Below, piece by piece: positions 57,291 through 61,112 of a DNA stretch of 64,000 nt (the stretch's first letter is position 1; the number at the start of each line of letters is the position of its first letter). Position numbers and translations under genes: made by a program. The stretch is taken from assembly GCA_934098435.1 (NCBI GenBank), contig CAKOOV010000001.1, positions 54,185-118,184 on the forward strand. The letters run 5' to 3'. The stretch is from an uncultured Bacilli bacterium. GTDB taxonomy: Bacteria; Bacillota_I; Bacilli_A; RF39; UBA660. Below the pieces are notes generated by a model, which was not told the DNA's origin, did not search any database, and saw nothing but the letters and a program-made list of their open reading frames with translations.

Positions 57291-57367
57291 CGAGCCTGTA
57301 GTCTCTCACTATTAAATAAAGCCTAAGGTCTTTATTTATAAATCTAAAGCCTTATAGTCTTTAAATT
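57291..57367 (-). repeat. tandem-hairpin repeat cluster E (AGAC-loop-GGCT family, inverted orientation), 3 hairpins
   Basis: The plus strand reads CGAGCCTGTAGTCTCTC, AAATAAAGCCTAAGGTCTTTATTT and TAAAGCCTTATAGTCTTTA. These are AGCC-loop-GTCT, the reverse complement of the core seen in the other clusters. Confidence 0.8.
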
Positions 57368-57388
57368 TTTTTATGTACTAAAATATAT

Positions 57389-57420
57389 AAAAATGCACAA
57401 GAATTTGAATGAATTGTGCA
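57389..57420 (+). repeat. TGCACAA/TTGTGCA inverted-repeat box U1 (direct repeat partner of D2)
   Basis: AAAAATGCACAAGAATTTGAATGAATTGTGCA compared with 58688-58719 AAAAATGCACAAAAATTTGAGTAAATTGTGCA: 3 mismatches in 32 nt. Confidence 0.75.
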
Positions 57421-57480
57421 AAAATGTATTTTTTTGTAAAAAAATACACTATTTCTTTTGAAAATAATGTCTATTTTTGT

Positions 57481-57517
57481 AAAAATGCACAATATTTTAG
57501 AAAAAATGTGCATTTTT
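57481..57517 (+). repeat. TGCACA/TGTGCA inverted-repeat box U2 (hairpin in the fic leader)
   Basis: AAAAATGCACA-N15-TGTGCATTTTT, an 11-bp perfect stem about 50 nt upstream of the fic start. Confidence 0.7.
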
Positions 57518-57566
57518 GTTTACTTTGTCTTTTTTTTGTGTTATTATTTGTGTAGAGGTGATGAAA

Positions 57567-58646
57567 ATGGAACCAATTAAAGTGAAAGAATTACCTATCG
57601 AATATACTATAGATAAGGATTTATTAAGACTAATATCTGAAGCTAACTCTAAATATGGAGAATATCGAGCTTGTCTAAAAAATATGGATTTTGATTCAAA
57701 ATTCTTTTTAGATTCAATTATACTTACAGAAAGTTTTAAATCTACTCAAATTGAAGGAACACAAATTTCACAAGATGATATGTACTATTTAAAATATATG
57801 CCAAAAACGGATGAATCTAAAGAAATTCAAAATTTAAAAAAAGTTATTGATTATTCTAAAGATTATTTAAATGATAAAAATGAAATTAATTTAAAATTTG
57901 TTAATGGTATACATAAAATTCTTTTGGATAGTGTGAGAGGCAATGAAAAAGAACCTGGACATATTAGAACAATACAAAATTGGATTGGACCAAAAGGATG
58001 TACTATTAATGAAGCTTTTTTTGTTCCACCTATTCCGGAAGATGTGCCAATCTTGTTAAATAATTTATTTAAATATATGAATGATGCTTTTATAGATCCT
58101 ATATTTATAAATTTAGCTATTTCTCATTCACAATTTGAAACTATTCATGCTTATAGAGATGGAAATGGTAGATTAGGCAGAGCATTAATTCCTATTCAAC
58201 TGGCAATGCTTACTAATGATGAACCGATTTTATTTTTATCGGAGATAATTGAATTGTATAAACCTAGTTATTATAGATTTTTAAACGAAAGTAGAAAAGG
58301 AAATATATTAGGATTTATTAAATTCTTTTTACAATGCATTATTGAGCAATGTGAAAATTATATAGCAAAGATCAATAGAATCAAACAAATATATAATGAA
58401 GATATGAAAAGAATTAAGAGTTTAAAAAGGAATGTTATGTATAGAATTATGCCTATTATGATGCAACAAATCGTTTTTACTAAAAAGGAAATTGAAAATT
58501 TGTCAGGTGTATCAAGAAATGCTGTTTCTAGTGCTATTGATAAATTAGTGGAAATGAATATTTTGGTAGAAGACTCTACTTATGCGAAACTAGCTTATAG
58601 ATATAAATCAATTTATAATGTTTTTTTAGGAAAAGATTCTATTTAA
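57567..58646 (+). CDS. fic: Fic family protein (AMPylase-type) with N-terminal inhibitory motif and C-terminal wHTH
   Basis: Fic core HAYRDGNGRLGR (HxFx[DE]GNGRxxR). Upstream inhibitory-helix motif STQIEG ([ST]xxxE[GN]). ATG at 57567 lies 6 nt after AGAGGTG; 57561 is an alternative start. Confidence 0.85.
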   Translation: MEPIKVKELPIEYTIDKDLLRLISEANSKYGEYRACLKNMDFDSKFFLDSIILTESFKSTQIEGTQISQDDMYYLKYMPKTDESKEIQNLKKVIDYSKDYLNDKNEINLKFVNGIHKILLDSVRGNEKEPGHIRTIQNWIGPKGCTINEAFFVPPIPEDVPILLNNLFKYMNDAFIDPIFINLAISHSQFETIHAYRDGNGRLGRALIPIQLAMLTNDEPILFLSEIIELYKPSYYRFLNESRKGNILGFIKFFLQCIIEQCENYIAKINRIKQIYNEDMKRIKSLKRNVMYRIMPIMMQQIVFTKKEIENLSGVSRNAVSSAIDKLVEMNILVEDSTYAKLAYRYKSIYNVFLGKDSI

Positions 58647-58650
58647 AAAA

Positions 58651-58687: not shown

Positions 58688-58724
58688 AAAAATGCACAAA
58701 AATTTGAGTAAATTGTGCATTTTT
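58688..58724. terminator. TGCACAA/TTGTGCA box D2; bidirectional terminator-like hairpin between fic and the AraC-like gene
   Basis: AAAAATGCACAA-N13-TTGTGCATTTTT, a 12-bp perfect stem flanked by A and T runs. Abuts the AraC-like stop codon. Confidence 0.7.
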
Positions 58725-59201
58725 TTATTTAAATATTGATAATTTTCTTACTGGCATTACTTTTGGTTTTTGATTATTTAAATATTTTTGTATTTTTGTT
58801 TCAGAACTTACTAACTTAGATATTGAGTTTCTTATTATGTTTTTTTCTTCGATATTTAAATTATTTAATGGCGATAGAAATTTTTTATATATTCTTGGAG
58901 AAACACCAATTACACTTTTAAATATTTCAGAATAGTATTCTATGCTATTGTAACCATTTAATAGTGCTATTCTTAGTATAGAAATATTTAATGAATAATT
59001 CGTTAGACTATTTAGTATTCTTTTGTTATTTATATATTCTTTAATAGTTATACCAATTTCTTTTTTGAATTTTTTCATGATATATGTTTTATCATAACTA
59101 AAAATGTTACTTAAGTTTATAATAGTTATTTCTGTATTTATATTATTATTAATATAATTTAAAATATTACATACTAAATCATTTGAATAAATAATTATCA
59201 C
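58725..59201 (-). CDS. AraC/XylS-family transcriptional regulator, DNA-binding domain only
   Basis: 158 aa with two HTH units (LSNIFSYDKTYIMKKFKKEIGITIKEYINNKRI; IALLNGYNSIEYYSEIFKSVIGVSPRIYKK). No sensor domain. Confidence 0.7.
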   Translation of the reverse strand: MIIIYSNDLVCNILNYINNNINTEITIINLSNIFSYDKTYIMKKFKKEIGITIKEYINNKRILNSLTNYSLNISILRIALLNGYNSIEYYSEIFKSVIGVSPRIYKKFLSPLNNLNIEEKNIIRNSISKLVSSETKIQKYLNNQKPKVMPVRKLSIFK

Positions 59202-59292
59202 TTCCTAATTATATTTTATCATAAAAAAGCCATTTTTGTTTAACTTTTTTATATTTTTTAGCTATATAATGTTCTTGAAAGGAGATGATACA

Positions 59293-60642
59293 ATGAATTA
59301 TTCAAGATGGGCTACTAATGAAGAGATGAGTAAATTTCTTAATGAAGTAGATATTAATTCTAGTATTCAAAAGTCTGGAATACCAATGGGATATGATAAG
59401 AATAAATTATTAATTAAGGATGATAATTCTCATACCCTTGTTATTGGTGCTCCGGGAAGTGGCAAAACACAGAGTGTTATGTTGCCAAAAGTTAAACTTG
59501 CTATTAAAGCAGGTGAATCATTATTCATTAATGATGTTAAAGGTGATATTTTAAATGAAATTGGAGGTGAACTTAAAAAAAATAATTATAATATAATTGT
59601 ACTTGACTATGCAGAGTTAGAAAAAGGTAATTATTATAATGTACTTACTTTTCCTTATAAACTGTATAGAGATAATAATAAGGATAAGGCTATAGAGATA
59701 TTAGAGAATATTGGTTATTATTTATTACACGATGTTAATGATAATTCGGATATATTCTGGGAAAATACCGCTATTGAATATTTTGTTGGTCTTACTTTAT
59801 ATTTATTTGATAATGCTAAAGAGGAAGAAATTAATTTAAAAAGTGTAACTTCTTTATCTGAACAAATTAACAATAGTAAAGAGAGTATTATTGATAAAAT
59901 AGATAGAGGTTCTAGTGCTTATCAGTATTTATTTAATACATTAGGTACTGCAATGGAAACAAAAGCTGGGATATTAGTAACATTTAATCAAAGAATTAAG
60001 AAATTCGTTACTAAGGAAAATTTATCTAATTCTATGTCTAAATCTGATTTTGATATAAATAATATTGGAAATGAAAAAATTGCTATTATAGTAGTAAGTG
60101 GTATTTCTGGTTATGTTAATAATTTAATTACTATATTATTAGAACAAATATTTTACAGTATTCAATTATATGGAAATAAAGAGAATAGATTTAATTTAGT
60201 TATTGATGAATTTGATAGCTTATTACCAATTGTGGACTTTTATAGTAAATTTAATTATGCAAGAGGAATTAATATTAATATTACTGCATTTATTAAAAAT
60301 TTTACTAATTTAAGAAATATTTATGGTAATAAAAATTATGAATTGATAAGAATGTGTTTTGATAATATTATTTATTTACTTGCTAATGATTTATATACTT
60401 TGGAAGAAATTAGTAATTTGTGTGGTAATTCTAATAAGGGACCGCTTATTTCTCCTCTAGAATTAAAAACTATAGATTTCTTTAATGAAATTATTTTGAT
60501 GCCAAGAATGTATCCTATTAAAACGAAAGTTCTTCCTGATTATGAAATTGATTGGAATTTTGATAATTCTAAGCTTAAACTTAGTGTTCTTGAAAAGAAT
60601 GAAGTTAATTTATTTGATATTGAAAAAATTTTAAAAAAATAA
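59293..60642 (+). CDS. type IV coupling protein-like ATPase (TraG/VirD4/TraD family) lacking the N-terminal membrane anchor
   Basis: Walker A VIGAPGSGKTQS and Walker B FNLVIDEFDSL, followed by ARGININITAFIKNFTNLRNIYG (T4CP-like SRGI...QL...YG block). No hydrophobic N-terminus. ATG at 59293 follows GAAAGGAG. Confidence 0.65.
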   Translation: MNYSRWATNEEMSKFLNEVDINSSIQKSGIPMGYDKNKLLIKDDNSHTLVIGAPGSGKTQSVMLPKVKLAIKAGESLFINDVKGDILNEIGGELKKNNYNIIVLDYAELEKGNYYNVLTFPYKLYRDNNKDKAIEILENIGYYLLHDVNDNSDIFWENTAIEYFVGLTLYLFDNAKEEEINLKSVTSLSEQINNSKESIIDKIDRGSSAYQYLFNTLGTAMETKAGILVTFNQRIKKFVTKENLSNSMSKSDFDINNIGNEKIAIIVVSGISGYVNNLITILLEQIFYSIQLYGNKENRFNLVIDEFDSLLPIVDFYSKFNYARGININITAFIKNFTNLRNIYGNKNYELIRMCFDNIIYLLANDLYTLEEISNLCGNSNKGPLISPLELKTIDFFNEIILMPRMYPIKTKVLPDYEIDWNFDNSKLKLSVLEKNEVNLFDIEKILKK

Positions 60643-60724
60643 TATTTAATATTATTTAGTTAGAAAAGTAATATGTGAAGGGGGGGTAGTAGCAGTATAA
60701 TAGGGGTGGACTGCTACGATACAT

Positions 60725-61018
60725 ATGACTTGCTGTAGTTGTAAATATTTAAATGAAGAGAAAAAATTAGATGGTAAAGTTAGTGGATGTGAATATTTCT
60801 GTAATAAAAATAAATGTTTCATTAATGGCCAAGATAATGCCTGTGATAAATACGAAAGTTCTTTTAGAAGTACTAGTAGATGTAATGAAATATATAATGA
60901 TGGTGAAAATTTTTATAATGATACTCATTCTGTTAGTTACTATTTATTTATTTTTATTATTGTTATTATTATATTTGTTATTGCACGTATTAATAATCCA
61001 AAACTTTTCCCATTTTAA
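60725..61018 (+). CDS. hypothetical Cys-rich protein with a C-terminal TM anchor
   Basis: MTCCSCKYL...GCEYFCNKNKCF...ACDKYE...RC (10 Cys in the first 55 aa), then the TM YYLFIFIIVIIIFVIA. No canonical RBS at normal spacing. Confidence 0.4.
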   Translation: MTCCSCKYLNEEKKLDGKVSGCEYFCNKNKCFINGQDNACDKYESSFRSTSRCNEIYNDGENFYNDTHSVSYYLFIFIIVIIIFVIARINNPKLFPF

Positions 61019-61027
61019 AAAGAATTA

Positions 61028-61112
61028 AATATGAAGACTATTTTATAGGCTTCATATTTTTCATTAAAGACCTTAGGCTTTAATGAACATAGAGAGACTT
61101 TGACTCTCTATG
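61028..61112 (+). repeat. tandem-hairpin repeat cluster F (AGAC-loop-GGCT family), 3 hairpins
   Basis: AATATGAAGACTATTTTATAGGCTTCATATT (61028-61058), TCATTAAAGACCTTAGGCTTTAATGA (61061-61086) and CATAGAGAGACTTTGACTCTCTATG (61088-61112). Confidence 0.8.

Follow-up and report, generated by a model that had tools for sequence, protein, structure and literature searches.

Does the DNA between the replication genes polC and polA of an uncultured RF39-type gut Bacillus represent a mobile element, or does it belong to the resident chromosome? The locus is a 3.7-kb stretch within a 64,000-nucleotide (nt) window (assembly GCA_934098435.1, contig CAKOOV010000001.1, positions 54,185 to 118,184), which derives from a very AT-rich genome (~26% GC). 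Two three-hairpin clusters of opposite orientation, E and F, enclose four genes there, and a sequence-only reading had therefore proposed that these clusters are the terminal inverted repeats of a composite element, or of a segment flanked by miniature inverted-repeat transposable elements (MITEs). Here, the locus was compared with loci of relatives (labelled L001 and so on), among them 80 polA-related ones; the closest records are human-gut metagenome contigs and uncultured Tenericutes/Bacilli metagenome-assembled genomes. We conclude, with a probability of about 0.7, that the stretch is a long-resident variable slot of the chromosome that would be renewed by homologous recombination, and not a mobile element with terminal inverted repeats. 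Its genes had been called as fic, an AraC-like gene, a type IV coupling protein-like ATPase gene and a gene for a Cys-rich protein, and these calls stand after the Pfam, PADLOC and NCBIfam searches. The features of the region are as follows (coordinates in the window).

52617..57239, plus strand: polC, PolC-type DNA polymerase III alpha (Pfam DNA_pol3_alpha, RNase_T, PHP and others); the conserved left anchor.
57246..57286, plus strand: terminator-like hairpin with a T run behind polC, read from the sequence.
57291..57367, minus strand: cluster E, three hairpins of the dispersed RAGAC-loop-GGCTY family (repeat, core-pattern and folding analyses).
57381..57523, no strand: two TGCACAA-N16-TTGTGCA boxes 5' of fic; the direct repeat that flanks the fic segment has its left copy at 57381-57431.
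57567..58646, plus strand: fic, a SoFic-type Fic/AMPylase gene (PADLOC SoFic, Pfam Fic and Fic_N).
58680..58730, no strand: right copy of the 51-nt direct repeat, with a TGCACAA-N16-TTGTGCA box; it extends into the 3' end of the AraC-like gene.
58725..59201, minus strand: AraC/MarA-like regulator consisting only of the helix-turn-helix part (Pfam HTH_AraC, HTH_18), divergent to the ATPase gene.
59293..60642, plus strand: soluble, anchor-less VirD4/TraG-like P-loop ATPase (Pfam T4SS-DNA_transf, PF02534, 4e-28).
60725..61018, plus strand: gene for a 97-amino-acid (aa) Cys-rich membrane protein, optional cargo with no family match.
61028..61112, plus strand: cluster F, three hairpins (repeat, core-pattern and folding analyses).
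61117..61140, no strand: palindrome containing ATTTCCCGGGAAAT, with the site at 61122-61135, read from the sequence.
61189..63810, plus strand: polA, DNA polymerase I (Pfam DNA_pol_A, 5e-157); the conserved right anchor.

Adjacency of polC and polA is widespread among the relatives (L001-L005, L007, L008, L015, L018, L019, L048, L093, L094, L098 and L222), and the neighbour of polC is either polA or the module formed by the AraC-like and ATPase genes. Several module-less intervals have no content, measuring 80 bp in L004, 126 bp in L018 and 182 bp in L008, while that of L003 (338 bp) carries only a Noc site. Longer ones hold an XRE-type membrane protein gene (881 bp in L005 and 833 bp in L048), two mTERF-like genes (1359 bp in L002) or miscellaneous genes (3.5-4.3 kb in L007, L015 and L019). 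No hairpin cluster was found in the interval of any of these relatives, and L002 has a family cluster 5' of polC. The sequence-only reading had suggested looking in relatives for an empty site with a single cluster; what the short sister intervals hold is no cluster at all.

The AraC/ATPase pair occupies the polC-polA interval in at least six related lineages, with ATPase identities of 62-97% to the window, and around it the contents differ. The same-species locus L093 (polA 99.8%, ATPase 87%) lacks both fic and the Cys-rich gene, L001 and L104 (97%) lack fic, and L188, which is L001-type (98% over the 225 aa before the contig ends), has it. L094-97 (83%) carry a Zn-ribbon gene and fic without the Cys-rich gene, L098 and L100 (72%) carry six extra genes, and L221 and L222 (62%) have an XRE pseudogene and a Cys-rich homologue of 52% identity. 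The polA tree groups the module-bearing lineages into a single clade (88/92), with the module-less relatives across that branch. Two cargo positions can be told apart. The left one, from polC or E to the regulator, holds fic, Zn-ribbon plus fic, an XRE pseudogene or nothing; the right one, from the ATPase gene to F, is either empty or filled by the Cys-rich gene or by three to six other genes. The Cys-rich gene is present in L001, L104 and L222 (52% identity) and missing in L093, L094 and L227. Even loci encoding an identical 859-aa polA protein differ: L227 has the order polC-E-Zn-AraC-ATPase-F-polA, whereas L225 carries fic and, from the ATPase gene to F, three additional genes. PADLOC identified nothing among the cargo genes of the relatives except fic. 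One locus, L021, had been taken as an F cluster without the module; this was withdrawn, as its upstream genes are homologous to the L098/L225 cargo and the contig ends 4.3 kb upstream.

Next to this variable content stand the two clusters. A repeat search recovered them as an inverted repeat with arms at 57300-57352 and 61047-61099 (53 nt, 81% complementary); the longest perfect match between E and F spans only ~17 nt. The hairpin cores of E, in minus sense, are GAGCCTGTAGTCTC at 57292, AAGCCTAAGGTCTT at 57319 and AAGCCTTATAGTCTT at 57347, and those of F, in plus sense, are AAGACTATTTTATAGGCTT at 61034, AAGACCTTAGGCTT at 61067 and GAGAGACTTTGACTCTC at about 61093. Orientation is meaningful here because the AGAC...GGCT core is asymmetric. 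On the minus strand E folds into three hairpins (-13.6 kcal/mol, z -4.7), compared with only -7.5 (z -1.6) on the plus strand, and F folds into three abutting hairpins (z -11.8). The geometry described from the letters alone is thus borne out: the clusters are inverted, the assigned orientations hold, each end has its GAGAGAC-type hairpin on the outside, and just beyond the right end, 10 nt past F, lies a perfect Noc-site palindrome (61122-61135). What did not survive is the idea that this geometry makes E and F a special pair of terminal inverted repeats, as both are two members of a dispersed family.

The window has 10 matches to the core pattern RAGAC-loop-GGCTY where 0.67 would be expected, and none of 100 shuffles reached 10. 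It holds six clusters, only E being in minus sense. When metagenomes were scanned with AAAGACCTTAGGCTTT, the middle hairpin, clusters turned up at about 70 AT-rich loci, and each locus was normalised to the orientation of its cluster, with orthologous loci merged for group counts. Clusters sit a few to a few tens of nt from the stop codon of the preceding gene, in either orientation. Between tandem genes, 23 rows were co-oriented and 26 anti-oriented (5 against 7 locus groups after merging), and three further locus groups lie in divergent intergenic regions. Because both orientations are about equally common, an inverted pair of clusters is expected half the time, and the opposite orientation of E and F carries no weight. 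In addition, the best non-orthologous matches of E are clusters at unrelated loci (0.81 identity over 98 nt), while the window's F reaches 0.73. The third hairpin, AGTGAGAGACTAYAGGCTCGAAC, is a conserved 3' module throughout the family. An Rfam search of the clusters gave nothing significant. The clusters are imperfect palindromes with a conserved core, intergenic, more frequent than by chance and present in both orientations, and E and F belong, as ordinary copies, to a genome-wide family of three-hairpin intergenic repeats that resemble repetitive extragenic palindromic (REP) elements.

Two other explanations of the arrangement were discarded. Alignment of E with the convergent AraC gene, as a rule of the 3' untranslated region would have it, does not hold, since in about half of the cases the cluster has the opposite orientation to the gene that ends just before it. 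Likewise, E is not a local inverted duplicate of F, as the matching hairpin occurs family-wide at many unrelated loci; E1, the hairpin of E next to polC, matches the third F hairpin of L021 and L094 at 24/25 positions.

Several observations concern the element itself. It appears to be fixed-ended, with a 5' leader, (A)TAAACTTAAA, and a 3' module, AGTGAGAGACTAYAGGCTCGAACTAA, as seen in L094 8385-8475, L149, L169, L195, L225 5835-5925 and L021 4190-4290. Often the leader's TAA, lying 12-17 nt ahead of the first hairpin core, contains the stop codon of the preceding, unrelated gene, and the repeat may supply or target stop codons. In the L001-type E1 hairpin (L001 6085-6100 and L104, compared with window 57292-57305), the closing pair changed from C-G to T-A, that is, from GAGAC..GGCTC to GAGAT..AGCTC, with the A.G mismatch kept. 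This single compensatory double change would be in favour of selection on structure. Finally, four independent 10.1-kb Logan contigs (L230-L233) end in cluster F just past the middle hairpin, within the last 70 nt, indicating that the repeat at F is breaking short-read assemblies.

Orthologues of F lie just 5' of polA in L001, L093, L094, L098, L021, L222, L225 and L227, and F is present in every member of the module-bearing clade. The distribution of E is patchy: orthologues occur in L001, L104, L093, L188, L094-97, L227 and L230 and are missing in L098 and L222. When placed on the polA tree, E is found in the window group and in the L094 group, and is missing in their respective sisters, L222 and L098.

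None of the hallmarks of a transposon was observed at the locus. The only sequence shared just outside 57291 and 61112, where a target-site duplication had been suggested as a check, is the AT-rich 6-mer TTATTT, at non-equivalent distances. Pfam and NCBIfam scans identified no transposase, integrase, recombinase or relaxase among the four open reading frames or their neighbours in the window. Foreign composition, another suggested sign, was not seen either: against 42 other genes of the window, the four genes have z-scores of -1.2 to +1.1 for synonymous-codon log-likelihood and of -1.6 to -0.15 for GC content at third codon positions. Within the species the unit as a whole was never present in some contigs and absent from others, as all contigs with the exact ATPase (12) or the exact polA (13) are filled alike. 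The E-module-F unit was not found elsewhere in the relatives' loci, the metagenome loci, or phage or plasmid records; phage records gave no match to the DNA of the region, and coupling proteins of plasmids are at most 27% identical to the ATPase. No contig examined carries an inverted version of the island. A mobile segment of the composite or MITE-flanked kind is therefore not supported, there being no target-site duplication, mobility gene or second copy and the composition being core-like. The sequence-only reading had itself stated that an island would be contradicted by a composition like that of the core and by conservation across the clade, and this is what we found, the conserved part being the AraC/ATPase pair. 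Its other suggestion, a recombination-delimited island, persists in a weakened form, in that the content differences are confined between polC/E and F/polA and the diverged tract of L093, described below, ends at F.

How, then, would the content change? Comparison of alleles (window 59300-61026 against L093 7001-8338 and L001 6799-8520) revealed a mosaic. The window and L093 are 97-100% identical up to 59299, 69-97% identical over 59300-60627, differ by the missing Cys-rich gene, and are again 97-100% identical from 61027, so that the diverged tract of L093 ends exactly at the left edge of F (61027). With L001, most of the ATPase gene is 97-100% identical at the nucleotide level (94% in two 100-nt bins), while the flanks are 88-96% identical. 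The ATPase gene thus appears to behave as an exchangeable allele, with 87% aa identity in the same-species L093, the flanks of which are 99-100% identical to those of the window, and near identity in L001, a different species. The ATPase tree also conflicts with the polA tree at well-supported nodes. Together with the identity discontinuities, this conflict fits a scenario in which related lineages replace segments of each other's DNA by homologous recombination, a mechanism that we infer from metagenome contigs.

The pair itself appears to be old. The ATPase has at least 902 homologues at E<=1e-10, which form a family of ~450-aa, anchor-less proteins; it also matches TraG-D_C and the NCBIfam CD1115 VirD4-like family (161 bits against a cut-off of 250). 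A small AraC-like protein accompanies it in all lineages looked at, even where the ATPase is only 47% identical, and the homologous pair at 47% identity lies in an unrelated context without hairpins (L224).

By sequence, fic is a SoFic-type predicted defence gene that forms a separately polymorphic cassette. Its product matches the PADLOC SoFic model PDLC03963 (1.4e-84, residues 6-350 of 359) and Pfam PF02661, scores 90 bits against the 550-bit cut-off of the NCBIfam SoFic equivalog, and has an intact catalytic motif, HAYRDGNGRLGR, as read from the sequence. SoFic is described as a single-gene anti-phage Fic AMPylase that acts by abortive infection (PMC12249575). The window gene resembles it in the full-length model match, in the HxFx(D/E)GNGRxxR-type motif and in being strain-variable, and differs in falling far below the equivalog cut-off; a small downstream antitoxin-like open reading frame, such as the AS1 of that study, was not identified beside it. 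The gene is present in L188, L094-97 and L225 and missing in L001, L104, L085, L093, L098, L222 and L227. The segment carrying it, ~57421-58719, is bounded by 40-51-nt direct repeats containing the TGCACAA-N16-TTGTGCA box, and the fic-less loci L001, L085 and L093 have one hybrid copy of this repeat. This suggests that the cassette may have been lost or gained repeatedly by recombination at the boxes. Operator-like boxes frame fic at 57381-57431, 57473-57523 and 58646-58730, accompanied by a short TGCACAA-TCA-TTGTGCA palindrome, and L098 retains TGCACAA boxes without fic.

Our model is that the core of the slot is an old resident pair of AraC/MarA-like and soluble VirD4-like ATPase genes, kept at the same locus in one RF39-type clade. 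Content would change when DNA of related strains recombines through the conserved flanks, fic would come and go by direct-repeat recombination at the TGCACAA boxes, and E and F are REP-like repeats lodged beside gene 3' ends in either orientation. Some of our observations weigh against this model. The module and the clusters E and F first appear at one and the same node, the base of the clade, and among the relatives examined none has both clusters without the AraC/ATPase pair. Moreover, clusters D, E and F lie within 9 kb, at both boundaries of polC and at the 5' boundary of polA, whereas the window as a whole averages about one cluster per 10 kb; this crowding hints that their link with the region is not random.

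The shared origin could instead reflect an ancient one-off insertion, in which the module arrived once at the base of the clade between MITE-like ends mobilised in trans and then became immobile, E being lost later in two lineages. We consider this unlikely. It would explain why the conserved 3' modules face outwards, why module, E and F map to one clade, and why the sister intervals are cluster-free even where the family exists in the genome (L002); the E clusters of the window and L094 also look orthologous, which places E in the common ancestor. However, the analysis revealed neither a target-site duplication nor a further copy of the unit, and no transposase in the region or beside it. E and F resemble each other no more than they resemble unrelated copies, both orientations are equally common in the family, and the AraC/ATPase pair occurs without hairpins in another context (L224). 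Still less probable, indeed barely credible to us, is a remnant of an integrative conjugative element, with the VirD4-like ATPase and fic as leftovers and E and F as former attachment ends. The ATPase does match T4SS-DNA_transf, TraG-D_C and the CD1115 VirD4-like family, and Fic genes are a common cargo of mobile elements. Yet no integrase, relaxase or VirB4 was found at the locus or in any syntenic relative, plasmid coupling proteins are distant (<=27% identity), the anchor-less ~450-aa family, with at least 902 members, never lacks its small AraC partner, the presence of fic does not track that of the ATPase, and attachment ends would be direct, not inverted, repeats.

A further possibility, which we regard as doubtful, gives the clusters an active part: they would be preferred sites of crossover or breakage, for example as single-stranded DNA hairpins that stall replication or are nicked, and cargo would be swapped at their edges. 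In every lineage the last cargo gene, whichever it is, ends 12-28 nt before the first F hairpin; in L093 the diverged tract and the insertion or deletion of the Cys-rich gene stop exactly at the left edge of F, and four Logan contigs break inside F. Two further contigs, L141 and L163, resemble reciprocal exchanges within the 33-nt identical core of two clusters. In these, hybrid clusters (L141 4650-4760 and L163 (=L234) 2040-2150) connect a repeat-protein gene with the polA side and RmuC with the ATPase side, as a reciprocal inversion between two clusters in an L094-type species would (X-cluster-polA in L141, X being the repeat-protein gene, and ATPase-cluster-RmuC in L163). We rejected this candidate: both are probable chimeras, because each is a single SPAdes contig of ~2x coverage (2.4x and 1.7x), other contigs that share their polA or RmuC protein have just the parental arrangements, and 33 nt equals a SPAdes k-mer step. 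A look-up of the X protein gave no record. Nor do the left breakpoints, at the fic boxes and the ATPase start, coincide with clusters, the ~17-nt perfect match between E and F is short, and no contig has an inverted island.

Among known systems, the slot most resembles the minimal mobile elements of Neisseria, regions between two conserved genes that hold strain-specific whole-gene cassettes, incorporated by homologous recombination (PMC3082526). Here, too, conserved anchors, polC and polA, enclose a slot without mobility genes, the cassettes differ (fic, Zn-ribbon, XRE, Cys-rich, the HIT/672/185-aa set, mTERF-like and others), and the identity discontinuities are consistent with homologous replacement. 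Unlike those elements, a resident AraC/ATPase core occupies the middle of the slot.

The clusters resemble REP elements and bacterial interspersed mosaic elements (BIMEs) of Enterobacteria and Pseudomonas, and Correia, BOX and RUP-type repeats, in being tandem clusters of short imperfect palindromes with many copies, intergenic beside gene 3' ends, in both orientations and conserved in position across species. What sets them apart is a three-hairpin build, a tip of the form AGAC...GGCT that keeps an A.G mismatch, and the fixed 3' module AGTGAGAGACTAYAGGCTCGAAC. Small repeats of the REP/BIME, Correia, BOX and RUP type often border variable regions. With composite transposons and MITE pairs the locus shares inverted small repeats that bracket a few cargo genes with the same end outward. 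In contrast to them, the unit in the window has no target-site duplication, transposase, second copy or whole-unit polymorphism, the resemblance of E to F does not exceed that between random family members, and the cargo is syntenic across the clade.

The spacer 5' of polA and the wider setting add several observations. The palindrome at the right end contains ATTTCCCGGGAAAT, which we take to be the Noc-binding consensus of B. subtilis, making it a candidate site here. Such a palindrome is what the polC-polA spacer of the module-less relatives L003, L005, L048 and L002 usually contains (L003 9664-9720; L005 9122-9160 and 9815-9860; L048 9170-9225; L002 9885-9920), and it is accompanied by extra half-sites, TATTTCCCAAAA. 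In L005 the two copies flank the inserted XRE-type gene, and in L098 a degenerate copy (ATTTCCTGGGAAAT, 6293-6330) follows directly after polC. The terminator-like hairpin behind polC is kept together with cluster E in L001, L093 and L094 and is missing where the Noc site comes straight after polC. In most relatives, with or without the module, a terminator-like hairpin, AAAGACTTTATTTTAAGTCTTTTTTTT, fused to a -10 box, TAGTATAAT, lies 5' of polA (L002 9935-9975, L048 9940-9975, L094 8490-8525, L098 13765-13800 and L021 4300-4335); in the window this element is replaced by the Noc-site palindrome and other sequence. GC skew is strongly positive on the plus strand from 48000 to 64000, through the end of the window, yet dnaA lies only ~6.6 kb past that end on the same strand (via L092 17447). 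Either the origin is not beside dnaA, or coding-strand bias dominates the skew.

Taken together, this is ordinary biology that does not overturn current understanding. It removes a false lead, the apparent transposon-like island, and replaces it with a resident slot, probably renewed by recombination, whose parts are now mapped: its anchors, its two cargo positions, a polymorphic SoFic-type cassette and a soluble VirD4-like ATPase that appears to swap alleles. For the repeat family, the conservation of position over roughly 20-30% protein divergence and the lack of an orientation preference both constrain ideas about its function. A more far-reaching and rather improbable suggestion is that the clusters are portable recombination boundaries that fix the edges of cargo slots, any new gene being joined 12-28 nt from the first hairpin, with larger rearrangements arising by crossover in the ~33-nt invariant middle hairpin. 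If true, this repeat family would organise the turnover of gene content in the small genomes of uncultured gut Bacilli.

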